A DNA stretch of 64,000 bases from an uncultured Methanoregulaceae archaeon (GTDB lineage: Archaea > Halobacteriota > Methanomicrobia > Methanomicrobiales > Methanospirillaceae). Location: positions 2,208,001 through 2,272,000 of the forward strand of contig OY969564.1 of assembly GCA_963701095.1 (NCBI GenBank), read 5' to 3'. Under the pieces are notes generated by a model. That model did no database searches and was not told the origin of the DNA. It was given only the letters and a program-made list of their open reading frames with translations. Each line of letters begins with the position of its first letter. Within the stretch, counting starts at the first letter, position 1. Shown here in pieces: positions 6,579 to 64,000 of this stretch. The position numbers were made by a program, and so were the translations under genes.

Positions 6579-6621
6579 CAGGATTTATTATACACAAAGC
6601 GCTTATTTAATTAGTATTATC

Positions 6622-7449
6622 ATGACCGCTTACGGCGTTTCAAGCATGTTCTTCCATGATTATACCTCAGGGAAGATATTCTCGTTTGTCGCACAAACCG
6701 GTCTTGATGGGCTTGAATTCTGGCTTGAAACCCCCCACTTCTGGCTTCGTGATCTCCCGGTCAACGAATTAATTGGATGTCGGCAGGAATATCCGGAGAT
6801 TACCACCTTTTCTGTGCATGCACCAGTCTTGGATCTCAATCCATGTTCTATCAACCCGGATATCGCAGAAATTTCCGTCGTCTCAACGGTCCGGGCACTT
6901 ACCATGGCAAAGGCCCTGGGAGTTAGTGTCTTCACAGTACATCCCGGCAGGAGGACGGCGAAACGGCCTCCGGGGGATGCAGATCTCGCCCGGTTTGATC
7001 ATTATATATCTGCACTCCGGGATGCCGCCCTCAAGGACCCTTTAACTGTCGCGATTGAAAATATGGAACCAGCCGTTAATTCTCTTATCTGTACTCCTGA
7101 GCGGATGAGGGAAGTTCTTGATGCCGAACCGTGGCTCAGATTCACGCTTGATACATCCCACGCACTTATAGCGTCAGAGGAAATAGTAATGGAATACATC
7201 GATCTTTGTTCTGACCGGCTCGCCAACGTGCACATCAGCAGAGCAGAAAATTGCCGGATGCACCTCCCGCTTGACCAGAGCCCCGTTATTGCCCGGATCC
7301 TGGGGGCGCTCTGTGATCACCATTATCAGGGCGCCCTCATGCTTGAGATCGATGATCTCAACTTCAAAAAACCATTGTCTGCCGGGGAAAAATGTGCAGT
7401 CCTTGCAAGAGATCTTGCATTTATGAAGGACTGTATGGAGCAGGAATGA
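6622..7449 (+). CDS. Sugar phosphate isomerase/epimerase family (AP-endonuclease-2 TIM barrel)
   Basis: SVHAP, TVHPG, IENM, LDTSH, NVHIS metal-binding motifs. Confidence 0.85.
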   Translation: MTAYGVSSMFFHDYTSGKIFSFVAQTGLDGLEFWLETPHFWLRDLPVNELIGCRQEYPEITTFSVHAPVLDLNPCSINPDIAEISVVSTVRALTMAKALGVSVFTVHPGRRTAKRPPGDADLARFDHYISALRDAALKDPLTVAIENMEPAVNSLICTPERMREVLDAEPWLRFTLDTSHALIASEEIVMEYIDLCSDRLANVHISRAENCRMHLPLDQSPVIARILGALCDHHYQGALMLEIDDLNFKKPLSAGEKCAVLARDLAFMKDCMEQE

Positions 7450-7558
7450 TTACAAAACCGTCGTCCGTTGGTTTTATTAAATCATGTTCCCCATACTTGC
7501 TGTAGATAACGACTATGAACCAAAGATACTGTCGTGCTCTTGCACGGCGTGAAAGAAG

Positions 7559-8836
7559 ATGATAGAGGATTTTTTTTATCTTCTGCTCTTTATCATCTGC
7601 ATCCTGCTCTCCGCTTTTTTCTCCAGTTCGGAGGTCGCTCTCATCTCGATTACCAAGGCGAGGGTTCGAACACTGGTTAACGATAAGAAGCCAGGATCTC
7701 TCGCACTTGCCACCTTAAAAGAAAAGCCGGATCATTTCCTGATTACCATCCTTATAGGAAATACTATCGTCAATATAGCGGCTGCAGCCATCGCCACCGC
7801 GATTGCAATCAACCTTTTTGGCGGCATTGGGGTAGGGATCGCTACGGTCTTTGTGGTTGTAATTCTGCTGGTGTTTGGAGAGATCGGTCCAAAGATTTAC
7901 GCAACCCGTACCCCGGATAATTACCCCCGGGCAGTCGCACCTGTCATACTTTTCCTCTCGCGCCTTCTCTCTCCTGTTATCTGGATCGTAGAGCGGGTGA
8001 GCCCCTCTCTTGGTGTTGGTAAAGATTCCGGAGAGCCTGCCATTACTGAACAAGAGATCAGAGAATGGATCGACGTGGGAAAGGAAGAAGGGACTATCGA
8101 ACAGGATGAAAAAGAGATGTTATATTCTGTCCTTGAGTTCGGGGATAAGACCGCGAGAGAGATCATGACCCCCCGCGTTGATGTTACCCTGATGCAAGAT
8201 ACCATGGCAATTAACGAAGTCATCCGGATCTTCAATGAAACAGGCTTTTCCAGAATCCCGGTTTACAACGGGCAGATTGATAATATTACCGGGGTTCTTA
8301 ATGTAAAAGATGTCTTCTCTGCAATGGTTTCCAAAAGGAAGGACATCTCGATAAAAGAGATAATGTATGACCCGACCTTTGTACCGGAAACAAAGAAAAT
8401 TGACGATCTCTTAAAGGAACTTCAGGTACACCGGGTCCAGATTGCTATTGTAATCGATGAATACAGCAGTTTTGTTGGGATAGTAACCGTTGAGGACATA
8501 CTAGAAGAGCTTGTTGGTGATATCAGGGACGAGTACGACCGGGAAGAACCCGATGTCCAGAAAATTGCAGACGGCGTCTTTGTACTTGATGCCCAGATGT
8601 GGGTTGATAATATCAACGACGAGCTGGGCCTTGGGCTTCCCATAGACGAGTCTTACGAGACTGTTGGCGGCCTTTTGATTGACAGGCTCGGGCACATACC
8701 TCAGCATCCGGGAGAAAAAGTTGAGATCGAGAGAGGAAGGATAACTCTTGTTGTCATGCAAATGCATGGCCGACGCATCGTAAAAGTCAAGTGTGTCGTC
8801 CGACCGGAGATCCAGGATGGGGGCGACGTCCGATAA
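7559..8836 (+). CDS. CNNM/CorB-type (DUF21-CBS-CorC) membrane protein
   Basis: SAFFSSSEVAL, GEIGPK, IMTPRVD, FSRIPVY, VEDILEELVG. Confidence 0.93.
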   Translation: MIEDFFYLLLFIICILLSAFFSSSEVALISITKARVRTLVNDKKPGSLALATLKEKPDHFLITILIGNTIVNIAAAAIATAIAINLFGGIGVGIATVFVVVILLVFGEIGPKIYATRTPDNYPRAVAPVILFLSRLLSPVIWIVERVSPSLGVGKDSGEPAITEQEIREWIDVGKEEGTIEQDEKEMLYSVLEFGDKTAREIMTPRVDVTLMQDTMAINEVIRIFNETGFSRIPVYNGQIDNITGVLNVKDVFSAMVSKRKDISIKEIMYDPTFVPETKKIDDLLKELQVHRVQIAIVIDEYSSFVGIVTVEDILEELVGDIRDEYDREEPDVQKIADGVFVLDAQMWVDNINDELGLGLPIDESYETVGGLLIDRLGHIPQHPGEKVEIERGRITLVVMQMHGRRIVKVKCVVRPEIQDGGDVR

Positions 8837-8846
8837 CCGAGGAAGT

Positions 8847-9452
8847 ATGGAAAAGCGGATCGTAGTAGTTGCTTCCGGAAGGGGTTCGAACTTTCAGGCC
8901 GTTATCAATGCCCTGAAGAGAGGGACAATACCAGCGATCTGCGTGGCACTTATCACTGATAATTCAAAAGCCTATGTGATCGAGCGGGCAAAATCTGAGT
9001 GCATCCCGGTTATTTTGGTTGATTACGCAACATTCTCCTCCCGGGAACTCTACGAACAGGCCCTTCTTACCGCACTTAAAAAAACCCAGCCAGATCTCGT
9101 TGTCCTTGCCGGTTATATGAGGATTATGGGTAGAGGCGTCGTGAAGGAATTTTCAGGAAGGATGATGAATATCCATCCGGCGCTTCTCCCCAGTTTTGCC
9201 GGTCTCCATGCCCAGCGCCAGGCTCTTCTGCATGCGGTAAAAGTTACCGGGTGCACGGTGCATTTCGTCGATGATAGTCTGGATGGGGGGCCGATTATCC
9301 TCCAGCGCTGCGTACGGGTGATGGACGAAGACGACGAGGACACCCTCGCCGAACGTATCCTCATCCAGGAGCATATTGCCCTCCCTGAAGCAATCAGGCT
9401 TTTCTGCGAGGATCGTCTGACCATCGAAGGCAGGAAAGTCCGGACACGGTGA
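8847..9452 (+). CDS. purN: Phosphoribosylglycinamide formyltransferase
   Basis: SGRGSNFQA, LAGYMRI, NIHPALLPSF, GCTVHFV, DGGPII; ATG at 8847 preferred. Confidence 0.96.
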   Translation: MEKRIVVVASGRGSNFQAVINALKRGTIPAICVALITDNSKAYVIERAKSECIPVILVDYATFSSRELYEQALLTALKKTQPDLVVLAGYMRIMGRGVVKEFSGRMMNIHPALLPSFAGLHAQRQALLHAVKVTGCTVHFVDDSLDGGPIILQRCVRVMDEDDEDTLAERILIQEHIALPEAIRLFCEDRLTIEGRKVRTR

Positions 9453-9543
9453 TTGACTTTTCTGAAAGGGAAATATTGTCCGGGCACCCGCTTTTTTATA
9501 TCCCGGCCGCTGATAGTATGACACCTGCAAGGTAGCCACGAAC

Positions 9544-9858
9544 ATGAAAGACAGGAAACGCACCGCCTCCTTAAAACCATTGGCACGGGAGCGGATTGCC
9601 GTGCTTTTTTCTGAAGCGGAAAAGATATACAATAAGCATCCCGAATATAGTGACCGCTATGTTGCTCTCGCCCGGAAGATTTCCATGCGTGAGCGTGTCA
9701 GGATCGACCGGGAATACCGTCATCGTTTCTGCCATCACTGCTACCGGTACCTCATGCCGGGAATGAATATGCGTGTGCGAATACACCCGGGATGGGTTGC
9801 GGTAACCTGTCTCGATTGCAAAAAGACGACCCGGTACAGGATGGAGGTATCCCCGTGA
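9544..9858 (+). CDS. rnp4: Ribonuclease P protein component 4 (Rpp21)
   Basis: ARERI..L, RYV.LARKI, CHHC...CLDC. Confidence 0.93.
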   Translation: MKDRKRTASLKPLARERIAVLFSEAEKIYNKHPEYSDRYVALARKISMRERVRIDREYRHRFCHHCYRYLMPGMNMRVRIHPGWVAVTCLDCKKTTRYRMEVSP

Positions 9859-10106
9859 CCACAAAAACTGATCCCGCGATGCAGGACCTCAAACCAACGG
9901 TCTGGATTGGAAAACAGGGCTGCACCGAAGCGGCTGTCGAAGAGATCGTAGCCCAGCTCAAAAAACGCAAGACCATAAAGATAAAGTGGCTTCAGAATAC
10001 GGATGTAGATCCTGATGCGGTGGCGGCTGCGGCCCATGCTGCTCTCGTCGAAGTCAGAGGAAGGACAATGGTTCTTACCGAATCGGCAAAAAAGGGAAAA
10101 AAATAA
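9855..10106 (+). CDS. YhbY/CRS1 family RNA-binding protein
   Basis: LKPTVWIGKQG, QL..RKTIKIK, VEVRGRT; GTG overlaps rnp4 stop. Confidence 0.9.
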   Translation: MTTKTDPAMQDLKPTVWIGKQGCTEAAVEEIVAQLKKRKTIKIKWLQNTDVDPDAVAAAAHAALVEVRGRTMVLTESAKKGKK

Positions 10107-10204
10107 GTCCTTTTACCGGTATCCGGTATCTCGAAATATATAAAAACCTCGCTTACCAATAAGATAAGACTGTTATTTAATTTTAAAAACAGTGAGGAAT
10201 CTAC

Positions 10205-10825
10205 ATGACGACCGTATATGATGTCCCGGCCGACGATCTTATCAGAAAGGTTGCCGAGGAGCTCAGGAAGCGGCAGGAGATCAAGCCGCCAGCATGGGCT
10301 GCCTTTGCAAAAACCGGGGTGCACAAGGAGATGCCCCCGGAAGACCCCGACTGGTGGTTCACCCGGGCAGCAGCAGTGCTGAGACGCGTCTACGTCGACG
10401 GCCCCCTGGGCGTCGAAAGGATGCGGAGTTTCTATGGAGGGAGTAAGAACCGCGGCTCAAGACCGAATGCTTTCCGGAAGGGCAGCGGTTCTATTCTCAG
10501 AAAAGCCCTCCAGCAGCTTGAAGCGGCGGGTTTTATCATTCATGACAAGACTGGCCGCAAAGTGTCCCCTGCTGGCATGGCATTTCTGGACAGTATGGCA
10601 AAAGACGTCCTTGCCAACCCTCCGGCACCGATCCCAAAACGGGTAAAACCGGTAGCCGAAGAGCCAAAGAAGGCAGAGACCAAGAAGACCAAAGGGGCAA
10701 AGGCCGAGAAGTCCGATGATGCAAAAGGCGATAAAAAGCCCGCTGCAAAGAAGGGCGAAGGCAAGAAAGCTGAAAAGCCCGAAGGTCATAAAGAAAAAGC
10801 TGAAGGCAAAAAGCCTGAAGCGTAA
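10205..10825 (+). CDS. rps19e: 30S ribosomal protein S19e with Lys/Glu/Ala-rich C-terminal extension
   Basis: TVYDVPA, PAWA.FAKTG.HKE.PP..DWW..RAA, GSGSI.RKALQQLE. Confidence 0.97.
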   Translation: MTTVYDVPADDLIRKVAEELRKRQEIKPPAWAAFAKTGVHKEMPPEDPDWWFTRAAAVLRRVYVDGPLGVERMRSFYGGSKNRGSRPNAFRKGSGSILRKALQQLEAAGFIIHDKTGRKVSPAGMAFLDSMAKDVLANPPAPIPKRVKPVAEEPKKAETKKTKGAKAEKSDDAKGDKKPAAKKGEGKKAEKPEGHKEKAEGKKPEA

Positions 10826-10839
10826 GTTGGTGACAATCC

Positions 10840-11178
10840 ATGGGAGACGATGAGCTGAGTGAAATCCGCAAAAGGAGGATGGCGCAACTCCAGCAACAGG
10901 CCGGCGACCAGCAGGCTATGCAGGAAGAAGCTGAACGCCAGCAGCGTCTCAAGTCCCAGATGCAGATGGTGCTTATGCAGATTCTCGAGCCCGATGCCCG
11001 TGAACGCCTGAACACCATCAAACTCACAAAACCGGACTTCGCAGCTGCCGTGGAACAACAGCTGGTGATGCTTGCCCAAAGCGGGCGCATCCAGCAGAAA
11101 ATCACCGATGCACAGTTAAAAGATCTGCTCCGGCAGCTTGCGCCGGCAAAACGGGATTACTCAATCACCAGAAAGTGA
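10840..11178 (+). CDS. PDCD5-like DNA-binding protein
   Basis: DELSEIRKRRMAQL, ARERL..IKL.KP, ITD.QLK.LL; conserved position after rps19e. Confidence 0.93.
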   Translation: MGDDELSEIRKRRMAQLQQQAGDQQAMQEEAERQQRLKSQMQMVLMQILEPDARERLNTIKLTKPDFAAAVEQQLVMLAQSGRIQQKITDAQLKDLLRQLAPAKRDYSITRK

Positions 11179-11780
11179 TGAAAGCAGGAGTGCTGTATAG
11201 CGGCGGGAAGGATAGTTCCCTTGCAGCGATAATGCTGGGTACGTATTACGAGGTTGAACTCAACACGTTTGTGTTCGACCCCGCCCGCTTAATTCCGACA
11301 ATAGAACTTGCCGCGCAGGTGCTGGGGTTCCCTTTGAGAAAACGGGTATTTCCCGAAGGAATGGCAGAAGAGATGGCAGATATGGTAATTTCATGCAGGT
11401 ATCCCAACGATGCAATCAACCGCATCCATAAAACTGCCATTGAGACCCTTGCCGGGGAGTATGAAGTCGTTGGCGATGGCACCAGGTTTGATGACCGGGT
11501 GCCAATGCTCTCCAGGGCAGAAGTGCAGAGTATCTGTGGCCGGTCTGGTAGCACGTACGTGCGTCCTCTTCTTGGCTACATGCGGTCCGAAGTCGACCGG
11601 CTGGTTGATCGGTTCCTCCTTGTGGAATACGGGGAGACCGGAGTAATCCAGAACGGCGATTACGAATCTGAGATCAGGGCGGCGATCCGTACCCGCGGAG
11701 CTGATCCCACCTCCCTGTTCCCCTCGCACCATGAGCAGTCGCTTGTGGTAGGAAGAAAAGAAGCAACAACAACAAGGTGA
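11175..11780 (+). CDS. PP-loop (AANH-like) ATPase family protein
   Basis: [27 protein letters not shown]; conserved position. Confidence 0.88.
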
Positions 11781-18213: not shown

Positions 18214-20555
18214 GGGTGTTTCACCTTTTTACTTTCCGCTTCCTTAAGACAATACATCATGTACTTCCCGTTGACGTTCTCGATGCCATGGATATCGTGC
18301 GAAAATCCCGGGAACGTGTTATCGAAATTCTGGAGGACTATCAGGGTACTGAAGGACAGGACCAGAAAGTTTCCCGGTTTTCTCTCCGGGTGCGAGCAGA
18401 GGTATCCCTGGCGGGTAGGGGACGATACCGGTCGCCACGATCCTACCTCCAGATTGTTCGACAGGAATATATTCGACCTTGTTTTTCACCAGCTTTGCGA
18501 AAGTATCTGCATACGTCCGTGCCGGTTCCGGCAGGGTCGCATATGCCTCTCCGAGCAGCTCGCACATCCTGTTCTCTTTTTTGAATTCGTGCATTTCCCT
18601 AACGAGGTCCTGGAGCGTTTTTCCTGCATACCGGTCGGGGCATCCGGTTGTAAGATCGGGAAAAATCTCTTCAAGAGGGGCATTTTCTGTGTACAATCGT
18701 TTGAACTCGAAAAGCTCGGTTACAAGCGTTCCCCATTTCCCCTTGGTAATGCCCATAGAGAATAAAAACAGGATGGAATAGTCCCCGGACTTCTCATTCA
18801 CAATTCCCCTGGTATCCAGGAATTTTACCACGATTGCCGCCGGGATACCCCAGTCAGCGAGCGAACCGTCGTCGTTAACCCCTGGCATAAGTACGGTGAC
18901 CTTGATGGGGTCAAGCATGCAGTAATTGTCAGGCAAACCGGAAAACCCGTGCCATTTTTCTCCCGGATGAAGGACCCAGGCCGAAGGCGTTTCCCGGAGC
19001 AGATCGATCGGTGCATCCTGGAAGAGGATCTTCTTTTTCGTTTTGGGGTCAGTGACCGTCTCCGGCTGCCACATGCCAAACCACCAGTCTTTGGACTTTC
19101 CTTTTCCCTGGCCTTCGATCTCACACTTAACCCGTGCCATTGTTCGCCTGAACCGGATTGCTTCCTCGATTGAATCGGTCGTCAGCACTCTTCCCGGTGC
19201 TCCATCCATCATTTTTGTAGAGATATCAAGAGACGCGATTATTGTGTAGAGCGGAGACGTGGAACTATGCATCATAAAGCCCTCGTTGAACCGGGAATGT
19301 TCTATGGGGATGCGGCCGTTCCTGACATGCACCATTGATGCCTGGGAGAGAGCGGCGAGCAGCTTATGGGTTGATTGTGTGGCAAATACCGTAGGCCCTT
19401 TTTCATCTTTAGCGCCGTCCCGCATCGCGAACCGGTCCCGGTACAGCGGGTTGAACCGTGCATACGCATACCAGGCTTCATCGAAATGAATACTGTCGAC
19501 GCTTTTTCCAAGGAGCGTTTCGACGTCTTTTGCGTGGTAACAGAGACCATCGTAGGTTGAGTTTGTGATGATCACATGCACGGGCTTTGTCTCCTCTAAT
19601 CCCTTCGTGAGGGGGCAGGCTGCAGTTTTTGCCCTGATTGCTGTCGGTGTCATCTCTGATGGCGGAATGGGGCCAATGATACCGTACCGGTTTCTTGTCG
19701 GCATAAGATAGACTGCCACCGAATGAGTCATCGTTAGTGCATGTTCGCTCGATTTGTGGCAGTTCCGGTCAACGAGCACGATATCGTCTTTTGTCACACT
19801 GCCAAAGAATACTATTTTGTTTGCCGTCGACGTACCGTTTGTTACAAAATAGGTCTGGTCTGCACCAAAAACTTTGGCTGCATACCGCTCAGCCTCGCCT
19901 ACCGGCCCTGAGTGGTCGAGCAACGATCCGACTCCCCAACCGAGATAGAGAGATCGGAACGGAAAAGTTGTTCCCCGAAAAAGGAATGGAACACTCGCCC
20001 GGCCGGTGATTTTAAGAATGCTATTCCTCCCGCGTGCCCCGGAGTATGCCAGGAATATTCAAAATCCTTTGAGAACTTTACCAGCTCGCCGAAAAACGGT
20101 GGAAGAAGATGTTCGCGGTACCGGCGTGCTGCCGCACTGATCCTTCCTGCGATAAATTCTGGTGTATCTTCCATCACCCAGATGTATTCATTGATCTCCT
20201 TGACCATCTCCATGGTGAGTTCAACGGGAGCTGCATTCGTTGGCTCACCCATGAGGAAAATGGGGATCTTTTCATTGATCTCACGAATTTGCTGGATGAG
20301 CCGTTGCGTATCTTTATGCCGTTTGGCAGAACAGCCGCCGACATTCCAGTTGACCAGGATACAGTCAACCCAGGAGAGTCCGGAATAAGCCGCCCGTGCA
20401 TCTTCCGGGGATGCTACACTGGCTATCTGGATACCATCCTTTCGGATTTCTTCCATTATACGGGAAATAGCTCTTCCCTGCGGGGTGTCTGTAGCATGCA
20501 TATCATCGACAATAGCGACACGCATCTGTTCTTTTTGGTTGAGATTTTCTGTCAT
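18210..20555 (-). CDS. PLP-dependent Orn/Lys/Arg decarboxylase (AdiA/LdcI-type with N-terminal wing domain), split by indels at about 19932 and 18345
   Basis: WHTPGHAGG, RSDLSISV|GELGSLLDHSGP (restored), NGTSTAN, DRNCHKS, HFDEAW, STHKLL, PYPPGIP; restored end FPGFSHDIHG..YCLKE..KHP with stop at 18210. Confidence 0.92.
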
Positions 20556-41069: not shown

Positions 41070-42104
41070 TTATTTTCCGGAAGGCTTCCGGTGCAGGGAC
41101 TTGTCTTCCTCGACAATATAGTTGATTACATTCTCTGAAATATCTGCAGCGTACTCTCCTGACCTGCGGATACTCTCGGCAATATAGCTGACAGAAACAG
41201 CCATCATCGTCTCCTGTTTAAAGGCAAGGTTGTGGATGTCGCCGCAGATATGTTCAAGGGCCGAAACCGATTCGATAGTCTTATGGGCCTCCTTGATATC
41301 GGCATTAAAAAACGAAATAACGCTCTTATCAAAGATTTGCATAGACATCGCACTTGCCTTCTTTAATGAAGTTATGATCTTCGGGTCGAGCTCGGTATCC
41401 ATCACCGGTTGTGCATTCTCGGCAATCCGTACGGCATGATCACCGATCCGTTCAATGATTTTGCTGATGAGGTGATAGTACATGGCCATACCGACCGACA
41501 CTTCCATCTTCCGCGAGAGGGACGGGTTCTGCATGATCATGTTGGTCTGCCGTGCTATCAGCCAGTTGAGCCGGTCTGAGTCCATATCCCGGTTAATCAC
41601 ATCAGTAGCAAGTGTCGCGTTATGCGTTTCAAGCGCCATAATGGCATCTTCATGCATGTTCCTGACAATCACAAACATCCGTTTTATGGTGTTATCAAAG
41701 GGCATCTCGGCAGGGTTGAGCAGATCTTTAATGAGGATAAGTGTATCGGTCTCTTCGATGACTTCCTGGCCGATAGTCATCTGGGTGAAGTCCCGGACAA
41801 CCGTACGGACAAATGGCGGGAACCGTTGTTTTGAGCTTATCCGGATTGTGGTAAACCCGGTAATGTATGTCCCGATAAGCATCCTGAACAGGAAGGAAGG
41901 GTCGGTAATATGACCGATATCGATCTCCTTGACCCGCTGGACCGGATCCTCAGTGGTCTTTTTGGTAACCAGAAGGGTACCATCGGGCTGGGTGATCAGT
42001 CCGACAGGATCGTTCTTCTTGATGCGCATTTCCTGGACCCAGTCTTTGGGTAGCGTAACGACAAACGATGACCCCCCGGTCATCTGTACACGGCGTATTT
42101 CCAT
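41070..42104 (-). CDS. phoU: Archaeal phosphate uptake regulator (AbrB-like DNA-binding domain plus PhoU repeats)
   Basis: MEIRRVQMTGGSSFVVTLPKDW AbrB domain; IERIGDHAVRIAE and IRRSGEYAADISE PhoU repeats; ATG at 42104. Confidence 0.92.
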   Translation of the reverse strand: MEIRRVQMTGGSSFVVTLPKDWVQEMRIKKNDPVGLITQPDGTLLVTKKTTEDPVQRVKEIDIGHITDPSFLFRMLIGTYITGFTTIRISSKQRFPPFVRTVVRDFTQMTIGQEVIEETDTLILIKDLLNPAEMPFDNTIKRMFVIVRNMHEDAIMALETHNATLATDVINRDMDSDRLNWLIARQTNMIMQNPSLSRKMEVSVGMAMYYHLISKIIERIGDHAVRIAENAQPVMDTELDPKIITSLKKASAMSMQIFDKSVISFFNADIKEAHKTIESVSALEHICGDIHNLAFKQETMMAVSVSYIAESIRRSGEYAADISENVINYIVEEDKSLHRKPSGK

Positions 42105-42268
42105 TTTCTGTTTACCTCCTGATGAATAGAGCGGTATGATGAATATGCTTAACTCTATTTTCACTCTTAAAGCATATATACCTGTATAGTCTATGTCGAA
42201 AAATTGTATATCATCTCGAAGTTAATATTCGTTTGAATATCAAAAGACGATGAATATGGGGGGCAGAT

Positions 42269-44135: not shown

Positions 44136-44190
44136 CAGTGATTTTTATAGATATACAGCACTAGTTATTTTGAAAAAAAAGTCTGTGGGG

Positions 44191-44209
44191 GATTTGCGTG
44201 ACGCAAATC
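44191..44209. promoter_or_regulatory. Perfect inverted repeat GATTTGCGT-G-ACGCAAATC, candidate operator
   Basis: 9-bp arms with 1-bp spacer, about 80 bp upstream of the pilus platform genes. Confidence 0.5.
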
Positions 44210-44289: not shown

Positions 44290-45192
44290 ATGGCTGCGGA
44301 AACGGACAGTTTTGAGAAGTTTTTTGAGATGTATAAGCGTTTTTGCTACATTTTCGGTCGGTCTTTTGATCGGAACCCCAACCGCGATATCATCAAACTG
44401 ATCTACCAGGCCGATCTTGAAATGACCCCGGGGATGTTTACCTCGTTATGGATTGTCACGACGATGGTCGTCGGTACTTTGATGATTATTATTGCCGCAT
44501 TCATTTTCCTGCTCCCCCAGAGCCCGTTTGCAATGCCGGCTCCTTTGCCCTACATACTGCTCTTTGCTCTTATCGGTGCAGCTGCAGTTGCTATTGGTTT
44601 TCCCTTTTACCTGCAAAACCAGATCGAGAATAAAAAGCGGGATATCGATACCCAGGTCCCGTATGCCCTTGCATTCATGTCGATCCTTGCAAGTTCGGGT
44701 GCTACGCCACTCGATATTATCCGGAGGATTGCCCGGGAAGAGTACGGCCAGATCTCCAATGAGTTTCGCAAAGTGCTCTTCCGGGTGGATGTACTCGGGG
44801 AAGATGTGGTCACCGCGATGAACGGGCTTGTGCAGAATACGCCGTCCGATATATTCCGGGACATCTGCATCGATATGACCAACATTATCTACGGTGGTGG
44901 GGGCCTGAAATCCTATCTTGAGACCAAGTCAAAAGAACTCATGTCCATCCGCCGCCAGACCTACAAGGAATTTGTGGAGTCGCTCGCCGTATTCGGTGAG
45001 GGATATCTCGGGGGAGTAGTCATGACTATTACCCTGGCTGTGCTGGGCGTGGTGATTACCGGTGCTCTCGGTATCCAGATAGGGCCATTTTCCGCACAGG
45101 ATTTGTTCAATTACCTGGTTTACCTGTTGATCCCGCTCATCAATGTGATCTTCCTGCAGATGCTGGCTGTGAAATATTCGACTACCCCGTGA
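44290..45192 (+). CDS. Type IV pilus/T2SS F-family membrane platform protein (TadC/ArlJ-like)
   Basis: ID.QVPYAL.FM.ILASSG, YG.IS.EF, LG.D...A......TPS..F. Confidence 0.9.
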   Translation: MAAETDSFEKFFEMYKRFCYIFGRSFDRNPNRDIIKLIYQADLEMTPGMFTSLWIVTTMVVGTLMIIIAAFIFLLPQSPFAMPAPLPYILLFALIGAAAVAIGFPFYLQNQIENKKRDIDTQVPYALAFMSILASSGATPLDIIRRIAREEYGQISNEFRKVLFRVDVLGEDVVTAMNGLVQNTPSDIFRDICIDMTNIIYGGGGLKSYLETKSKELMSIRRQTYKEFVESLAVFGEGYLGGVVMTITLAVLGVVITGALGIQIGPFSAQDLFNYLVYLLIPLINVIFLQMLAVKYSTTP

Positions 45193-45198
45193 TCCGTT

Positions 45199-46566
45199 AT
45201 GCCTGCGCCACCTAAGAACAAACCGGTCAATAAGAAAATGGATGAACTCCATGAGATTATCGAACGGATACGGATCAAGTACAACCCGCCGCGGGAACTG
45301 TTCACGATCGCTATTCCGGTAGCTATTGCCCTGTTGGTCGTTTTATCTGCATTTTTGATGGGATATACTCTTCACACCACGCAAAAACAAGTAACTGTCA
45401 CCACAAGTGACAAAGAAAAAGCACTGCAGGCATACCTTGCACAAATGAACAACGAGGGCGGCAATGGTACAGAAGAATCTGCTAATATAACGCCGACAAC
45501 ACCTGTAGCTCCAACAATGGGACTGGACGAGGTGATGGTATTTGCTCTCCTTATCGCTATTATCCCGTACGCGGTGGATATTACAATCCAGAAAAGGGCG
45601 GTTCGTAAAAAAGAAGAGCTCTATACCGAGTTTCTTTTCAAGCTCTCTGAGCTGATGAGAGGCGGTCTCGATCCGATAAAAGCGGTAAAGGAACTCTCTA
45701 AAACTGATCTTGGTGTTCTGACCCCGCATATCCGCATCGCATCGACATCGATGACCTATGGAAAATCCTTTGAAGAGGCCATGAAGGCGATGTCGAAATC
45801 GCTTCACTCCGAGTTGATTACCAGGTATACCATGCTCGTTGTTCAGGCTTCATATTCAGGGGGGTCAGTTGCTGATCTTATTCTCAAGGCCTCAGAAGAT
45901 ATGCGGAGCATTATCTCAATAGAAAGGGAAAAAGAAGGTAACCTTCACCAGTATGTGATGATCTTCTACTTTGCTCAGGCGATTATCATATTTATCGTCT
46001 ATATCCTAACGACAAGCCTGCTCCCGTTCGTAGCACAGATAGGTGCCACCCAGATGTTTGGTAAATCAGATATTGGTGATATCGATTTTGCCCGGGGATT
46101 CTTTCATATGATCATTCTCAACTCCATATTCGGTGGTCTGATTATTGGTAAGATCAGCGAAGGGGAGGCACGGTACGGTCTCAAGCATGTCGTGGTGCTC
46201 GTCGCCGTGGGGTATATTGCATGTGCTCTGTTTATACTTCCTCCGCCGGTTGCACCGGTCGGACCAAAAATCAATATTACTGTCGTATCCGGGGATCAAC
46301 AGACTGGAGTTATTGCATTACCGCTTTCAAACCCCATTGTTTTCCAGCTTACAGATGCAACTGGTAATCCTGTGAATAGTACATCGGTTTCATTCAGCAT
46401 AGTACCGAGTGGGTCAGTGAATCCGGTGTCGGCTACCTCAGATGATAAAGGACAAGTAGAGACGAAAGTCATTTTCGGATCCGATTCGGGATCTTATATT
46501 ATTACTGCAACGGCAAATGGAGTTTCCACTAAAGCAACCGCAATAGCAAAAACAGGAGGAAGTTAG
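45199..46566 (+). CDS. T2SS F-family platform protein fused to a C-terminal Ig-like (Big_1-type) domain
   Basis: FL..LSE..RGG, G.SFEEA, GLIIGKISEG....GLKH; tail SGDQQTG..LTDATGNPV...VSF..ATSDDKGQ..GSY.ITAT. Confidence 0.85.
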   Translation: MPAPPKNKPVNKKMDELHEIIERIRIKYNPPRELFTIAIPVAIALLVVLSAFLMGYTLHTTQKQVTVTTSDKEKALQAYLAQMNNEGGNGTEESANITPTTPVAPTMGLDEVMVFALLIAIIPYAVDITIQKRAVRKKEELYTEFLFKLSELMRGGLDPIKAVKELSKTDLGVLTPHIRIASTSMTYGKSFEEAMKAMSKSLHSELITRYTMLVVQASYSGGSVADLILKASEDMRSIISIEREKEGNLHQYVMIFYFAQAIIIFIVYILTTSLLPFVAQIGATQMFGKSDIGDIDFARGFFHMIILNSIFGGLIIGKISEGEARYGLKHVVVLVAVGYIACALFILPPPVAPVGPKINITVVSGDQQTGVIALPLSNPIVFQLTDATGNPVNSTSVSFSIVPSGSVNPVSATSDDKGQVETKVIFGSDSGSYIITATANGVSTKATAIAKTGGS

Positions 46567-51136: not shown

Positions 51137-51751
51137 CTATCCGTGTCGCTCTCTGGTATCGATTAGGAATCCTTCATCGCTCACTGTGAAAGGTAGCATC
51201 TTTTCAGAAAGCTTGGCTCCCTGCATTTTGGGGATATTGAGAAAACGTTTGAGTTTATCCCCTTCAATTACGGTGGTCACCTGAATAATCCCGTCTGCCA
51301 TAGCCCGCAAAAGTGCCTCATGCCGTTCGGGGAGAACACCGCGATCTACAAGCAGGAGGAGAACATGGCCGGTTTTTGCTGCGGTGAGGAGCCGGGAAAT
51401 AGCGTCCCGGAATTCGGAAAGAGGCGTATCAAGGAAATAGAGTGAAAACTGATCTACGATCACCAGGTTGCAGTTCCCAGGGAGTGTAAGAATATCAAGG
51501 AGCGGTCCGGGAGCGGTTCCGTGCATTTCTTCAATATGGAATCCCTTCACCGGCAAAATTCTCAGGAGTTTCATGTCATCGCGGATCTCGTCTGATGCTC
51601 TTGTGGTGATATAACACACGTCTTTTCCGTCAGCTGCCGCCTCTGAGGCTATATATTGGGCATAGATTGATTTGGCGAGCCCCAAATCTTCTTCAATCAG
51701 GATCACGCTCTTTTTCGGAAAATTATCTAAGCCATGAACGAGTGTCATCAA
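51137..51751 (-). CDS. KaiC/RAD55-like (ArlH-like) RecA-fold protein with degenerate Walker A
   Basis: GLD..P.KSVILIEEDLGLAKS, LVIVD, ADGII, R.L.IPKM.G....PFTV...G..ID. Confidence 0.8.
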   Translation of the reverse strand: MMTLVHGLDNFPKKSVILIEEDLGLAKSIYAQYIASEAAADGKDVCYITTRASDEIRDDMKLLRILPVKGFHIEEMHGTAPGPLLDILTLPGNCNLVIVDQFSLYFLDTPLSEFRDAISRLLTAAKTGHVLLLLVDRGVLPERHEALLRAMADGIIQVTTVIEGDKLKRFLNIPKMQGAKLSEKMLPFTVSDEGFLIDTRERHG

Positions 51752-52007
51752 CTATCTTTTGCATGTCCCCTCTCATAAGTGCTTTCCAACTCAGATGGAA
51801 CTTCAACAAACGGAATTTGGCAAATCCGGGAAACAATTTAATGTAACCTGACAACAAAATTTCCGCTGTAATTCCCCATGATAACCTCCAATTTCATTTT
51901 AAATCGTTTGTTTTTTACAGAAACTTTTTATAGGAAAAGTACCCCACAATATTATATCCCCCACAGAGATCACTCCTGAAAAAGCGCGTCTCCGGGATGC
52001 AACAAAA

Positions 52008-52454
52008 ATGCAGACCATCCCAGACCTCTTCAGGCGTATTTATACTACGCCGGCATACATTGCCCTTATCCCGTCGATCGCAGTAATTATCGATTACACC
52101 CTGACTTTTTTTCTCGCTGAAAATACGGGAATGATTTTACAATGGGAGGCAAGCCCTCTTGTCCGGTTTGCCGTTGCACATAATAGTGTCTCGATTTACA
52201 TAATGGCGATTGTTATATTCTATTATAGCACGGCTTATGTAGTCCTCCACATCTTACAGTCCACTCAATATTATCGATATGGCGTAGCGTTGGTTTTACT
52301 GGTTAGCATAATACATATCCTTGGCGGATTATCGTGGCAATTCAAGACCGCATGGTATTCCAACAGCATTTTTGTGCTTTCATTTTTATCTGTTCTCATT
52401 GCGATCTGCCTTTTCGGGTATACTTTCTTCAGGCAGATTCATTCTTCACAATGA
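52008..52454 (+). CDS. Membrane protein (DUF5658-like)
   Basis: IIDYTLT...EASPL followed by TM helices. Confidence 0.65.
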   Translation: MQTIPDLFRRIYTTPAYIALIPSIAVIIDYTLTFFLAENTGMILQWEASPLVRFAVAHNSVSIYIMAIVIFYYSTAYVVLHILQSTQYYRYGVALVLLVSIIHILGGLSWQFKTAWYSNSIFVLSFLSVLIAICLFGYTFFRQIHSSQ

Positions 52455-56852: not shown

Positions 56853-58798
56853 ATGGCTGAAAAACGTGAGATCCTTCATGAGCTCGGCGAAGATGAACTC
56901 CTCCTTCCTACTCTCCTCAACTCCGCCCTGAAAGCGAACGACAGGATCAAATATTATTTTACTCTTCTCCAGGCAGCAAAAAACCATGCAGATAACCCGG
57001 ATCAGAGCCATTCGAATCTTAGGGCTGAACGGGAGTCTGTTGGGATTTCCGATCCTGATCTCGATATAGTTGTTGGCGGTTCAACAAGGGCCGGAGAAAA
57101 AGAATATACCATCCCTTTGGCAGGACTGATTTTTCATGAAATGTCGATAGCCATTGAAGAAATGGTATCTCCCCTTGCCTCAAAAAATTCTCCAGAAGTG
57201 GACAGTTTCAATGAGAGATTTACCCACCTGCGTAGTTCCCTCTCTCTATCCGGAGAAGAACCGGTATCTGGCGATCTTATCAATAATATTACGCTGGCCG
57301 ACCGGGGCAGTGGTACTGACAGCCTTCACCTGCTGGTAATGGATCTTCATAAAGCCATAAATTCGCTGCAGACGCAGATCGCGAACGAAGAAATCGATGG
57401 TGCACTCGGCTATCTTCTCATCGACCCGGATCGGGAAATGGTCCGGGCCTTCATGACTGGCGTCAACCGCACAGCCCCGCTCAAATTCGGTCATCCCGGT
57501 CTTGCGACAATCGCAACCCGAACCGGGGACAAACTGGTAATCCAGAATGATATTGGCCTTACTGATGCACATGTACTCGTCGTCACAGTAAAAGATCAAA
57601 CGATTACCATTACTTATACGGATATTCACCTTCCACGGCTGCATTTCTTTCAGAGTCTCTTCCATCCATTTCGGGTGCAGTGGAGCGATACGATCTCCCG
57701 GACGCCGGAGAAAAAATTCGAAGCCCCGGTATACCACCTTTCCGTGGGAACTTTCACTGCACACGATGAAACAGATGCTTGGGATTTCCTCACTCATGCA
57801 GGGTCGCGTGTCGTCTTTTTAATCGATTGGAACCGGGCCCGGAAAAGATTGCGCAATTTTGTTCCGAATGCTGATGCAATTGAAATTCTTGCCCGTGCAG
57901 CTGAGGAGGAAACAGGGCACATCGCTTTCCTTGAGCTGGGGGGGAAAGGCTGATCTATGAGGCTCTCGAACTGGCATCAAGTATCCCTCTCCGGTACGGT
58001 GAACCGTTACATGCGATTCTTGGCAGGGAGCAGACCATGGAATATCTTCAGTTTGTCCTCCGGACAGCATCGAAGGGACTTCTGGCAAATACGTCCCGTT
58101 TTCTTCTTCAGAATGAGATCCGTGCCGAGCTGCTCCGGTATTTCCGGACGGCACACGAAGGGATGATGGATCTCTGCGAAGAACATGCCTCGTATTCCAT
58201 AGAAATCGCTTCAATCGTCCTTGAATCCTTATGGCTTGCATCTGATCAGCACGATCCTCTGATCATTTCGCGCAATGCCGCCCGGGGGAAGGAATGGGAG
58301 CATAATGCTGACGATCTTGTGAACAGGATGAGGAATCTCTCCCAAAGGATCCAGAACCCGGAATTCTTTATCTCTCTTATCGCAACCGCAGATGACGTCG
58401 CCGACTATCTGGAAGAGGCTGGCTTTTTCATTACCTTGATCCCGGTTCATACCGATTCCAAAGATATTTTCTTTGAGCTCAGGAACCTTGCGGAGCTGGT
58501 CCTGAAGGGATGCCGTGGTTACCTGAAAATCCTGATTGCAGCCCAGGAATTCCATAGCACGAGCCAGCGCGAAGATCTCAAGGATCTGCTGACCGCTGTT
58601 GACGAGGTCTTTTCAATTGAGCGGCTCTGTGACGAATCCCTGAGAAGGACAGAGCGGGTGATCTTTGAGCAGTGCACCGATTTTAAGGAATTCAATCTAT
58701 ACCTCGAGATTGCGAGAACCCTCGAAGAAGCTTCCAATGCCCTTTTGAAAGTTGCTTTCCACGTCAGGGACTACATGATAGAGAGCATGAACCGATAG
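56853..58798 (+). CDS. About 650-aa protein: unknown N-terminal region plus C-terminal DUF47/PhoU-like domain; split at G7 run 57938-57944
   Basis: Adding one G gives LGGERLIYEALE..GREQTMEY, joining ORFs 56853 and 58037; tail EHNADD, ADDVADYLEEAG, IERLCDE, LEEASN. Confidence 0.8.
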
Positions 58799-58810
58799 GA
58801 TGGATACCAA

Positions 58811-60412
58811 ATGACCGACGAAACGCCCCGGATTGTATTTTTCGGACCAGATGTTAAGACAGAAGTATCCTCGGATGATTTCGGGAATAAGGCGTCTGTA
58901 CTGACAAGGATGTCGGCTCTGGGTATCCCGGTGCCCCCTGGGTTTGCCCTATCTGTTGACCTCTGCGAGGAATATTTCCGGAATGGTCAGGTTCTTCCCG
59001 ATGATGTACCTGAATTACTCCGGCAGGGACTTGCCTTCATCGAGCGGTCTACCGGGCTGCGATATGGTGCCAGTCGAAGGCCTCTGCTTGTCTCGGCACG
59101 CTCCGGAGCGGCCGTGAGCATGCCCGGGGCAATGGAGACGATCCTTAATATCGGGCTCAACCGTGTTACCGTGCGAGGCCTTATTGCACAGACCGGGAAC
59201 CCGAGATTTGCCTGGGATTCTTACCGGAGGTTCCTTGAATATTTTGGAACAATTGTTTTCTCCCATGATCCTGGGTCATACCGGAAAATTGAACGCCAGG
59301 TTATGGAAGAGGAACACGTGCCAGATGAATCCGTTCTTGATTTTGCCGCCATGAGAAGCATCGCTGAACAGTACGAACAATTGTATCCCCGTACAAACGG
59401 TAAGCGATTGCCGGATGATGTCTTCTCGCAGCTCGAACTCGCAACAACGGCGATCCTCCAGTCATGGAACAGCTCCCGTGCCCAGGCTTTCAGAAATATG
59501 AATCTCAATTCAGGCGCACGAGGAACTGGTGTTACGATAGAAGCCATGGTTTTTGGAAACCTGGGCTCGCTCTCCGGGGCTGGTGTTGCATTCTCACGAA
59601 ACCCCTTGACCGGCGTTAACGAACTTCTTGTTGATTTCAAGTTCGGCGCACAAGGTGAAGATATTGTATCAGGACTCATGGGGGTCGTGTCGCACCAAGA
59701 ATTCGCCGCAAGGATTCCTCTTGCTGCGCGTGAATTATCCGAGGCTGCGAAGAGACTTGAGTTCATGTACCGTGATATGCAGGATATAGAATTCACGGTT
59801 CAGGAAGGGAAACTTTTCATCCTCCAAAGCAGATCCGGGAAACGCGCTCCGCTCGCCGCCCTGAAAATCGCTGTAGATCTTGTCCACGAAAATATTATTG
59901 CAAAAGACGAAGCAGTTAGCCGGGTGAGGGATATCGATGCAGAGGCGATCACCATTCAGACTATCAAAACCTCTAAATCGCCTCTTGCTGTGGGTATTTC
60001 AGCTTCCATGGGTGTAGCATCTGGGAAAATTGCCCTTAGTGCCGAATACGCAATCGAATTATCTAAAAATTCGCCGGTCATCCTCGTCCGGGAAACCGCA
60101 AATCCGGATGACATTGGTGGTATTGGTGCCTCTCTTGGTATCCTTACGGTGAGAGGTGCAAGAACCTCCCATGCAGCCGTTGTCGCACGACAAATGGGGA
60201 AAGTGTGTATTGTGAGTTGTGGCGACCTGAAAATTGATCTGGCTCGGCGTGCGTGCACCTTCCCCGGACGTGATCTCTACGAGGGTGATTATATCACCCT
60301 TGATGGCGGGAATGGACAGATTTATGAAGGGATCGTTCCCGTGGTAGTGGAGAAACCAGTAGAACTTATTCAAGAGCTGCGTATGTGGAATTCAGATACA
60401 CCTGCCCTATGA
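58811..60412 (+). CDS. PPDK-like protein: ATP-grasp plus phosphohistidine domains, no pyruvate-binding barrel
   Basis: GNK..L, GIPVPPGF, PLLVS.RSGA.VSMPG.M.T.LN.G, MVFGN, AQGEDIVSG, DIEFT, LQSR.GKR, TSHAAVVAR; stops at 533 aa. Confidence 0.9.
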   Translation: MTDETPRIVFFGPDVKTEVSSDDFGNKASVLTRMSALGIPVPPGFALSVDLCEEYFRNGQVLPDDVPELLRQGLAFIERSTGLRYGASRRPLLVSARSGAAVSMPGAMETILNIGLNRVTVRGLIAQTGNPRFAWDSYRRFLEYFGTIVFSHDPGSYRKIERQVMEEEHVPDESVLDFAAMRSIAEQYEQLYPRTNGKRLPDDVFSQLELATTAILQSWNSSRAQAFRNMNLNSGARGTGVTIEAMVFGNLGSLSGAGVAFSRNPLTGVNELLVDFKFGAQGEDIVSGLMGVVSHQEFAARIPLAARELSEAAKRLEFMYRDMQDIEFTVQEGKLFILQSRSGKRAPLAALKIAVDLVHENIIAKDEAVSRVRDIDAEAITIQTIKTSKSPLAVGISASMGVASGKIALSAEYAIELSKNSPVILVRETANPDDIGGIGASLGILTVRGARTSHAAVVARQMGKVCIVSCGDLKIDLARRACTFPGRDLYEGDYITLDGGNGQIYEGIVPVVVEKPVELIQELRMWNSDTPAL

Positions 60413-61537: not shown

Positions 61538-61650
61538 TAATCTATATTGAATTACCTCCTATCCCGTCTGAATTAAAAATATATATAGCCTATTGTGATC
61601 ACTATATTGAAAAGCCTTAAATCTATATCAAAAACGCTAAAAATATATAG
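61538..61650 (+). promoter_or_regulatory. Array of (C/A)TATAT boxes upstream of pstS, candidate Pho-type operator/promoter
   Basis: Cores at 61542, 61581, 61602, 61623 and 61643; last four spaced 20-21 bp. Confidence 0.5.
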
Positions 61651-61789
61651 TCAAAGGTCGATATGGTGATTGGTGAATTGACATCTGTGGGGGATGAATG
61701 AACTTCACCAGCAAGAACTCCGTGGCAAATCCCTTAATACTACAAATTTTTCTACAAATCCCATCCACGAACACCAAAGGTGAAAAGTA

Positions 61790-62994
61790 ATGTACGCAAT
61801 GAAACGCATGAACAATGATATGGCAGTCTCACCGATTGTCGCGACGCTCGTCCTTATCGTCGTCGCCGTCATCGGTGCTGTTGCAGTCGGAACCATTATG
61901 GGTTCCTTCTCAACCCAGGTATCGAAGCAGGCAAACGCAGGGCAGGCATCGTCCGCATCCCAGACCGAGATTCTCGTTGCTGGTTCGACAACCCTCCAGC
62001 CCGTTGAAATCAACCTTGCATCAGACTATGCAAAGATCAACCCCGGTATCCAGGTTAACGTCCAGGGTGGATCATCAGGTGTCGGTGTAACCGCTGTTGC
62101 AACCGGTATCGCTGATATCGGTGCATCTTCAGCCGCATCCAAGATCACCGCAGGACAGGCAGCAAACCCGTCCAACCCCGGCTACCAGAACCTTTACGCA
62201 CAACTCATCGGCGGCCGTGCAGTTGCATGGATCACCAATGCCGCATCCCCGGCTGTCGCATCAGGCACAGTTAGCGCATCTGATCTCCAGCAGGCATACA
62301 GCACTGCCCTTGGATCAAACGGTACCCTTCCAGCTCATGGGCAAACAGCAGCAGCATTTCAGGAAATGCCATTATGGTTTCCCGTGCAGACTCATCTGGA
62401 ACTGAAGACGATGCAAGCACCTGGCTCTTTGGTGCAACCGGCAAGATCAACTCCTCATACACTATTGCAGAGACTGGCAACGAAGGTCTTCGTTATTATA
62501 TCGCTACGACGGCACACACACTCGGTTTCTGCGACGCAGGCTGGGCACTCACCAACCCGTCCGGTATCGAGATCCTCAACGTCACTGACTGGACCGCAGC
62601 AACAAGCCCAGACTCACTCTACACTCCAGAAGTAGCAACTGGCACAGTAGGAGAAACCTACGGTGCAGTCACCAAGACTGAAATGATGGATGCTCTTAAG
62701 GACTGGTATTTCGGCAGCGCACAGGACCACTCAGGCAGTGCAGTTGCAACCTCTGGCGTACACACTGGCCAGCAGATCGGTAACTACCCCCAGGGACTTG
62801 TCGGCGGTATGTACTGGATCACCCCAGCTACCGTCCCAACCGTCTTTACCGCCCGTGGAACCATCCAGACCCAGGGAAGCAGCGCAGCATCAAGCACAGT
62901 CAAGGACCTCATGAACTTCGCAGTGTCACCCGTAGAACAGCCAGCATTTGACAACGTCGGTGACTTACAGATTAACGAGTTCGCCTCGACATAA
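61790..62994 (+). CDS. pstS: PstS-like phosphate-binding protein with archaeal type IV pilin class III signal peptide; split by a -1 indel at about 62325-62340
   Basis: NDMA|VSPIVATLVLIVVAV; AGSTTLQP, VQGGSSG.G, ADIGASS; shifted frame SWAN...VSRADSSGT; directly upstream of pstC. Confidence 0.85.
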
Positions 62995-63038: not shown

Positions 63039-63956
63039 ATGAAAAGCAAATCAGAGATTCATAAAAATCTCTTCCTCTTCTGTGCCTTAGCCACTGTGGT
63101 CACAGTTTTTTCCGTCATTTTGTTTATTCTGATAAATGCAGCACCAGTATTTCTCCAGTACGGCTTTGGGTTCATCTTCGGAACCACATGGGACTACCCC
63201 ACTCACCAGTATGGTGCCTGGCCACTCATAACAGGGACATTATTACTGACTGCAGTGACGATGGTGATCTCGGTTCCTGTGGGCATTGCAACTGCGGTTT
63301 TCCTCTCTGAATGGGCGCCGCCGTGGCTCGACCGGTCCCTCTCCACGCTTATCGAACTTTTGGTAGGGATACCTTCGGTCGTTTTTGGTATACTCGGTTT
63401 TTTTGTATTCCGGGATTTTTTCCGGTATGGTATCAATCCGTTCATCGCAAACAATCTTGGTTTCATTTCATTCTTTCAAGCAGGTTCTACAGATGGTTTC
63501 GGTATCCCGATAGCATCGTTTGTCCTTAGCCTGATGATCCTTCCCACAATTATTGCTCTTTCGACAGAGGCGATGAGGAGTGTCCCGGCAGAGCAGCGTG
63601 AAGCATCAGCTGCTCTTGGCGCGACTGACTGGGAAACCATACGGGATCTCATCCTTCCCTCGGCAGTCCCCGGAATAACGACCGGCGTGATTTTGGGAAC
63701 GATGCGAGCAATGGGTGAGACTATGGCTGTGGTCATGCTCGCCGGAGGTGCGTATGGAGTTCCAACGTCCGTTCTTGATTCTGTCCTGCCACTGACTGCA
63801 AAAATCCTCATCGATCTTGAGAATTATATCGCCGAACCGGAACCAAGGAGCGCTCTTTTCGCTCTTGGCGTCCTACTTATGGCAGTGGAAATCGGTTTTG
63901 TTTTAGCTATTCATATCATTACCGACAAAATGAAGCGGCGGTATGGCGGTGCCTGA
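63039..63956 (+). CDS. pstC: Phosphate ABC transporter permease PstC
   Basis: YG.WPLI.GT, IELL.GIPSVVFG, MILP.I, REAS.ALGAT.WET, RAMGETMAV. Confidence 0.95.
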   Translation: MKSKSEIHKNLFLFCALATVVTVFSVILFILINAAPVFLQYGFGFIFGTTWDYPTHQYGAWPLITGTLLLTAVTMVISVPVGIATAVFLSEWAPPWLDRSLSTLIELLVGIPSVVFGILGFFVFRDFFRYGINPFIANNLGFISFFQAGSTDGFGIPIASFVLSLMILPTIIALSTEAMRSVPAEQREASAALGATDWETIRDLILPSAVPGITTGVILGTMRAMGETMAVVMLAGGAYGVPTSVLDSVLPLTAKILIDLENYIAEPEPRSALFALGVLLMAVEIGFVLAIHIITDKMKRRYGGA

Positions 63957-64000
63957 TGAAACGGCGTTATGTCAAAGGTCAGATCATCAAGATAATCTGC
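63956..64000 (+). CDS. pstA: Probable PstA N-terminus (3'-partial)
   Basis: TGATG overlap with pstC; MKRRYVKGQIIKIIC; identity inferred from position only. Confidence 0.55.
   Translation, partial: MKRRYVKGQIIKIIC

Follow-up and report, generated by a model that had tools for sequence, protein, structure and literature searches.

The window, i.e. the whole 64,000 nucleotide stretch analyzed here, encodes at positions 61790–62994 (+ strand) a phosphate-binding protein, PstS, that carries a class III (pilin-type) signal. This PstS probably acts as receptor in a phosphate bindosome with a machine of its own, which on genomic grounds would consist of a type IV filament (T4F) machine co-encoded with a second Pst system. 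The arrangement suggests that a surface structure resembling a pilus carries phosphate traps. Both class III binding proteins and bindosomes have precedents; for the co-encoded phosphate system none was found in the literature covered.

The bindosome has been studied in Saccharolobus solfataricus only, where no structure corresponding to it has ever been observed and where the receptors are encoded apart from the machine. Here, as seen in other Halobacteriota, receptor, permease, motor, platforms, pilin and regulators are in one operon. Since the operon is present in the genetically tractable Methanosarcina acetivorans (PMC4858521, Table S4), polymerisation of a binding protein on a pilus machine is directly testable. 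The distribution indicates an accessory phosphate-scavenging strategy in a minority of Methanomicrobiales (at least 25 of the 301 genomes sampled).

The pstS locus and its reading frame

The pstS sequence has one frameshift near positions 62330–62365 and is about 401 aa in length when intact. The N-terminal open reading frame (61790–62635, + strand) starts with MYAMKRMNNDMA|VSPIVATLVLIVVAVIGAVAVG, and the C-terminal half is a separate open reading frame in another frame at positions 62374–62994. The homologue P0001 is unbroken, has a chain length of 399 aa and displays 95% and 91% identity to the two PstS halves. Named homologues are from Methanoregula.

A short-read contig (run X1, possibly the source sample) aligns to positions 61925–62953 with no substitution, one gap and one added base, and by its length restores the pstS frame. 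Since this contig is one base longer and otherwise identical, the break in pstS is probably a consensus error of the assembly, which is a single contig of 2.63 Mb and 86% complete. A pseudogene reading is disfavored by the same near-identical contig; it is also weakened by the base that X1 adds at position 57936 in another split gene and by the splits in pstA and the pilus ATPase gene, both of which are broken in this assembly as pstS is.

The gene with the added base is DUF47/PhoU-like and is followed by a PPDK-like gene (window positions 56853–60412, split at about 57936). PPDK relatives adjoin the module in loci L001, L014 and L016. An amino-acid decarboxylase-like gene at 18319–20555, beside an amino-acid transporter (assigned by eye), is present as two open reading frames and is probably another assembly frameshift.

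The pilin-type N-terminus

The PstS chain begins with a short charged leader of 12 aa (61790–61825, + strand) that ends in D-M-A, is cytoplasmic in a register taken from solved pilins, and is predicted to be removed by prepilin peptidase. It is followed by a hydrophobic helix homologous to pilin alpha-1 (mature positions +1 to +34; 61826–61927, + strand), which is nearly invariant in the family, and then by an Ala/Ser-rich linker. A search of the PDB with the 45 residues past A|V (E ≤ 10) gives five matches, each of them a pilin or filament subunit from archaea (8FK7, 8REY, 3J1R, 5KYH and 8FJ5; E-values 0.003–0.37). The deposited chains of 8REY, 3J1R and 5KYH start at the same V-S-P as PstS.

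The archaeal pilin profiles to which the initial annotation had pointed are divided. The TIGR02537 archaellin/pilin N-terminal profile is above its cut-off of 20 on the first 62 aa (20.9 bits; 18.2 bits on the longer open reading frame), but Pilin_N (PF07790), at 19.4 bits, is under its cut-off of 25.2. No cysteine or lipobox was found in the PstS N-terminus, and a lipoprotein or Sec signal was rejected on the lack of Cys and the pilin matches. The earlier description of an archaeal prepilin-type N-terminus that is not a lipobox is therefore borne out by the TIGR02537 and PDB matches, the V-S-P register and the absence of cysteine, and the class III signal reading holds at the sequence level. 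The helix itself is of low confidence in the structural model of PstS (pLDDT 42–58).

The N-terminus is better conserved than the domain that it precedes. Mean pairwise identity is 74% over mature positions +1 to +29 and 39% over the PstS domain (28 sequences, 373/378 pairs), in a set gathered in part by N-terminal pattern; L001, L007 and L042, being broken or not PstS, are excluded from it. A search with the PstS domain only gave 35 proteins, 27 of which have a pilin-type N-terminus, including the top 25. Such an N-terminus is also present in 109 of the best 150 representatives (50% identity clustering).

Residue −1 is A or G in 136/136 homologues, and residue −2 is Met both here and in 104 of the 136. 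The FlaFind motif has K/R at −2, later also D/E, so that PstS with its Met fails the K/R form. Only 31 of the 109 class III representatives have K/R at this position, and K/R-based screens would miss most of the pilin-type PstS family. Ordinary pilins of the same genome, which encodes many further pilins, also carry non-K/R residues at −2, and PilA1/3 of H. volcanii have D there (PMC4371748, Table 1). A single A24 prepilin peptidase is encoded in this genome, at C1:2194206–2195399 in contig coordinates (one PF01478 match above cut-off).

The phosphate-binding domain

The N-terminal open reading frame matches PF12849 (PBP_like_2, E-value = 5e-11) and the PstS profile TIGR02136; the score for TIGR02136/TIGR00975 is 40.7 bits against a curated cut-off of 206.6, with the frameshifted half alone scanned. 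The AlphaFold2 model of P0001 has a pLDDT of 83.7 and its top Foldseek matches are PstS. The fusion of a pilin-type N-terminus to a PstS fold, as first annotated, is confirmed by the PF12849 match and the model.

The GSTT motif, the Ser positions and the R...SGT motif are taken by us to be the phosphate site, in part by alignment to solved PstS. These motifs are present in P0001, in most relatives and in the window's own frames. Of 31 aligned rows, 25 essentially retain the ligand residues S66, T67, T68, S96, S114, R196, S200, G201 and T202, a count that treats S/T swaps and one partly changed copy as kept. Phosphate ligands are absent from the other six class III rows (L007, L009, L012, L030, L042 and one L046 copy), thus the machine is not always phosphate-specific.

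The Methanocellaceae loci (L007:9995–12073, L009:9959–10942 and L012:8188–9186) have several proteins with pilin N-termini and altered binding sites. Among the class III proteins of this family is one of 692 aa with a Peripla_BP_2 (iron/B12-type) domain, and in these organisms one machine may serve several ligands. Genome G281 has a second, divergent class III PstS-like gene (L030:8386–9414), about 133 kb from the module, in which the phosphate ligands are absent.

In the PstS tree a long branch (support 100, length 1.58) separates the class III subfamily from most ordinary PstS rows. As this is a quick tree in which long branches meet, with 3 label changes and with L046b counted as "other" despite its class III signal, it neither supports nor contradicts class III monophyly.

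Permease genes

A pstC permease gene (63039–63956, + strand) follows pstS; its product matches TIGR02138 above cut-off and keeps the EAA-type coupling motif. The pstA gene starts at position 63956 (63956–64000, + strand) and continues past the end of the window. EAA-type motifs are present in both PstC and PstA here, and the strict pattern matched 10 of 19 proteins.

No pstB was found after pstA in the module, which is therefore without the pstB of a PstSCAB operon, and in the 30 module loci pstB is matched in two, both owed to a neighboring ordinary operon. The same genome has a complete ordinary pst operon at C1:2188256–2192624, with a lipobox PstS, pstB and phoU. An ordinary pstSCAB is also kept in the 5/5 other genomes checked, i.e. 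in 6/6 in all.

At its C-terminus PstA (G000 C1:2271956–2274611) is extended by a long stretch that comprises additional membrane segments and a domain outside the cell. In L028 the extension is part of one fused chain of 948 aa and in L004 of one of 805 aa, whereas it is split in this assembly; PKD-domain genes come after it. A transposase-like gene (by eye; G000 C1:2277156–2277938) interrupts the stretch between pstA and the ATPase.

Pilus-machine genes

Two platform proteins are encoded upstream, tadC1 (44290–45192, + strand; PF00482) and tadC2 (45199–46566, + strand), the latter with a C-terminal Ig-like domain that is Big_1-like and below cut-off. A KaiC/ArlH-like protein (51137–51751, − strand; PF06745) has relatives in 24 of 30 module loci. 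A small membrane protein without Pfam match (52008–52454, + strand) is found in 20 of the 30 and is the positional equivalent of arCOG09548. An AbrB-PhoU gene of phosphate-regulator type is at 41070–42164 (− strand), with relatives in 14 of the 30.

The VirB11-type module ATPase (C1:2280626–2282257), which is split by a frameshift that cuts off its N-terminal extension, and a class III PKD/Ig pilin (C1:2282425–2283651, − strand) are 9–12 kb past the window end. The distance from pstS is 17.5 kb for tadC, which lies upstream, and 10.8 kb for the ATPase, which lies downstream. With a Walker-motif ATPase, platform proteins, a class III subunit and a peptidase, the parts of a type IV filament system are all represented. 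The 19 linked ATPases group apart from the four other ATPases of the genome (SH-aLRT 93, in a quick tree with long branches).

Co-folding of PstS with the pilin scored 0.40 against 0.00 for the best control, with contact agreement of at least 73% and partner pLDDT of at least 78; 18 of 157 solved complexes pass with a score of 0.60 or lower, as do the only two mismatches (of 215) that pass at all. The predicted fold lends weak support to a pairing of the two proteins, and its score may reflect likeness to solved pilin filaments.

Conservation of the module across genomes

Full-length PstS including the pilin N-terminus is found in at least 25 of 301 Methanomicrobiales genomes by the matches listed, with 192 further matches that are weaker. 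TadC1 is matched in 31 of the 301 and the module ATPase in 29. Among the PstS matches listed, TadC1 is present in 25/25 and the ATPase in 24/25, and one of these is within 20 kb in 24/25. The Fisher p for co-occurrence of PstS and TadC1 is 3e-31, which is overstated since linked genes are inherited together and the genomes are kin.

Eight genomes have TadC1 or the ATPase with PstS absent among the matches listed. One of them (G282) does have a class III PstS, cut at a contig end, and in six (G039, G140, G165, G179, G269 and G296) the loci break at contig ends. In G013 (99% complete; locus L013) PstS and ATPase were not found; the tadC pair, kaiC, the membrane gene and a pilin fragment are present, and this is apparently a decayed module.

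All 12 loci from the genome scan have orthologues of tadC1, tadC2, the KaiC-like protein, the membrane protein, the VirB11-type ATPase and the PKD/Ig pilin. In a sample of the phylum TadC1 is found in 23 of 301 genomes. Seventeen loci from genomes outside Methanomicrobiales were picked by TadC1 alone (an eighteenth genome was already covered by other loci); 15 have a class III binding protein and the other two are contig-cut. The commonest layout in other Halobacteriota is pstS-pstC-pstA-ATPase-tadC-tadC-kaiC (opposite strand)-pilin-phoU. In 30 non-redundant loci the ATPase and tadC2 are each present in 28, tadC1 and the class III binding protein in 27, kaiC in 24, pstC and pstA in 23, the pilin in 21, a PhoU-type gene in 14 and pstB in 2. 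The gene set is thus conserved while gene order shuffles.

The binding protein comes ahead of ATPase-tadC-tadC in L008 (Nitrososphaerales) and L009 (Methanocellaceae), two loci from which pstCA is absent; L042 and L046 are also without pstCA. The receptor is therefore tied tighter to the machine than to the permease. In the phylum of L008 and G554, TadC1 is matched in only 2 of 351 genomes, one of these weakly. L031 and L032 have close PstS relatives with ordinary N-termini, and TadC1 was not found in their genomes. Among 20 genomes with close PstS relatives for which the profile match leaves out the N-terminus, TadC1 is present in three, two of which also have a class III copy; N-termini were read in two of these 20 genomes, and in G238 the sequence stops at the end of its contig.

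On this genomic evidence PstS and the pilus module are functionally coupled. The initial annotation had proposed display of PstS on a pilus-type structure, a proposal which gains support from the co-occurring, linked module of ATPase, two TadC proteins and pilin.

Two of these loci have further features. L042 (positions 1205–2428 and 6274–11404), a module variant, lacks pstCA and encodes a class III protein without Pfam match; its opposite strand carries a gene for an ABC ATPase of the MalK/CysA type. In the Nitrososphaerales module a PRC-barrel/CdvA-like coiled-coil gene (L008:13403–14227) is located beside kaiC.

Promoter region and shared motifs

The promoter region of pstS (61542–61650, + strand) displays five CTATAT/ATATAG repeats, which are candidate phosphate-regulator boxes, and a putative TATA box. 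The cluster is one of two such clusters genome-wide, and the repeats are also seen in relatives. With the pattern used, no CTATAT box was found that this promoter shares with that of the ordinary pstS or of phoU.

The 12-mer TCTGTGGGGGAT has four copies genome-wide, compared with 0.28 expected, and three of these are in intergenic regions of the module. One is about 105 nt before pstS (61684–61695, + strand), another about 107 nt before tadC1 (44182–44193, + strand) and the third between kaiC and the gene of the membrane protein (51956–51967, − strand). The core pattern precedes tadC1 in 12 of 19 genomes; ahead of pstS, where 20 genomes were readable, 13 have it. The shared 12-mer and the CTATAT repeats suggest co-regulation of the separated module genes, and the PhoU-type neighbors point to possible phosphate control of the module. 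In the passages covered, a paper on M. mazei starvation does not address this module (PMC6864096).

A structured leader RNA was considered and rejected. There is no Rfam match near gathering score, apart from one chance snoRNA, and fold z-scores are only −0.5 to −1.8; for these reasons TCTGTGGGGGAT is treated as a sequence motif. A hairpin is possible in the pstS leader (window positions 61672–61709), with outer arms that recur in relatives and a folding energy that is not significant. A scan for terminators of the bacterial-type pattern found none after pstS. RNA contigs of a relative in two wetland metatranscriptomes span pstS; such contigs can neither show transcription nor rank genes.

Comparison with known systems

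The closest known counterpart is the Bas bindosome (BasABCEF; T4F subsystem 4I) of S. solfataricus, in which GlcS, AraS and TreS are likewise class III ABC binding proteins and in which a T4F ATPase, a platform and pilins are needed for binding-protein function (PMC3047682; PMC4187195). There the sugar-binding genes are in ABC loci apart from bas, and the machine has one platform gene and three small pilins (PMC13705601). In the phosphate module, by contrast, the machine is encoded together with its receptor and permease, and there are two TadC proteins, a KaiC-like protein and a single large pilin of PKD/Ig type. The ligand is phosphate, pstB is absent and the ATPase is of Clade 2 and not 4I, as assigned for the ATPases of the same operon in PMC4858521, Table S2. 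A 4I ATPase and BasABC-type small pilins are lacking, and no small pilin triad is seen in the loci. The phosphate module probably functions in the manner of a bindosome and is outside the Sulfolobales Bas family. The Sulfolobus Bas system gave no classical filament, and complexes of binding proteins formed even without BasEF; the bindosome itself has never been seen as a filament according to the Discussion of the same paper (PMC3047682).

Sivabalasarma and Albers (2026) proposed that bindosomes are widespread, with 4397 predicted class III binding proteins, and that such (SPIII) binding proteins may functionalise T4F machines, as suggested here; in that paper the linking of binding proteins to specific T4F loci is stated to still need validation (PMC13705601). 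The word "phosphate" occurs 0 times in its main text, and "phosphate", "PstS" and "PBP_like" occur 0 times in 6 of 7 supplement files; the Pfam list in Fig S9 may include PBP_like_2.

The same loci appear as archaeal T4P Clade 2/System 2 loci with arCOG09549 in Table S4 of Makarova et al. 2016 (PMC4858521), where they are tabulated without interpretation for M. acetivorans, M. petrolearius and M. psychrophilus. The M. acetivorans entry has the full operon together with prepilin peptidase and PhoU; in strain C2A its pstS is at 3841261–3842259 (MA3093 if counted back from MA3100) and the ATPase gene is fourth in order. In these tables PstS is entered as a neighbor, unmarked as a T4P protein, and is FlaFind-positive in M. 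acetivorans only; neither phosphate nor PstS nor arCOG09549 is mentioned anywhere in the main text (PMC4858521).

Pseudomonas aeruginosa forms PstS-rich appendages by Hxc type II secretion, which resemble the phosphate module in low-phosphate surface PstS and in use of a machine of the T4F superfamily (PMC2242829). The resemblance is best regarded as an analogy, not as a homologous system. The PstS of these appendages is presumably a secreted cargo and not a pilin fusion. The canonical PstSCAB-PhoU system shares with the module the PstS fold, the phosphate ligands, PstC and PstA, and differs in having a lipoprotein PstS and a separate operon in the same genome. The S. solfataricus PstS SSO0489 is said to have once been listed as a class III candidate, and the M. 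acetivorans locus may have been noted in Szabo 2007. In the literature covered, which lies outside that older class III work (Szabo 2007; Albers 2003), no description of a co-encoded phosphate pilus system was found.

Proposed mechanism and alternatives

In the phosphate bindosome proposed here, the A24 peptidase would cut PstS at A|V, removing the 12-residue leader and leaving the hydrophobic helix, by which the ATPase and the TadC pair would lift the protein from the membrane. PstS would then be packed into an oligomer or a short pseudopilus, which the PKD/Ig pilin would start or cap and which would be situated within the S-layer or outside it. Caught phosphate would pass to the cognate PstC-PstA, for which the ordinary operon would lend its PstB as power source, and the module would be switched on at low phosphate.

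A variant in which PstS is the major pilin of a true phosphate-scavenging filament is possible, although we consider it rather less than even in likelihood. The ATPase would extend such a filament through the S-layer and recycle loaded subunits to the PstB-less PstC-PstA. A rough packing estimate gives a filament width of 11–16 nm (33 kDa head, assumed rise of 0.5 nm), which is comparable with the 14 nm of Iho670 fibers (PMC2910488), and hence a PstS filament is sterically conceivable. An adhesion pilus induced by phosphate starvation is unlikely. Its filament would be made mainly of PKD/Ig or other pilins, of which the genome has many. PstS would be a minor subunit or form the tip and would serve to bind surfaces or minerals that carry phosphate, with uptake secondary. 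The Ig/PKD-like domains on the co-encoded pilin and TadC2 are typical of adhesins, pstCA is absent in L008, L009, L042 and L046, and the PstS-rich appendages of P. aeruginosa at low phosphate are adhesive (PMC2242829). Yet pstC and pstA are present in 23 of 30 loci, mostly directly behind pstS; no small PilA-type major pilin is seen in the loci, and in most cases pstS comes first and has a promoter to itself.

Less likely again is a sensor, in which PstS, as a membrane-anchored monomer, and the PstB-less PstC-PstA would read outside phosphate and steer pilus assembly via the KaiC-like protein and PhoU. The near-invariant pilin helix is unneeded for a simple anchor, the EAA-type motifs are kept in PstC and PstA here and in the 10 of 19 proteins that matched the strict pattern, and pstB is available to borrow in all six genomes checked. 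These points are set against the absence of pstB from the module (its two matches in 30 loci belonging to neighboring ordinary operons), the position of the pilus ATPase in the place of pstB, and the conservation of the KaiC-like and PhoU genes. It is very improbable that the class III signal is a mere alternative membrane anchor and the pilus genes neighbors without functional link, even though linked genes move together and 1376 such binding proteins are reported from genomes without a T4F locus (PMC13705601). The linkage outlasts the shuffling of gene order across several families and into another phylum, the rare TadC co-occurs in 25 of 25 genomes among the PstS matches listed, and a regulatory motif is common to the separated genes.
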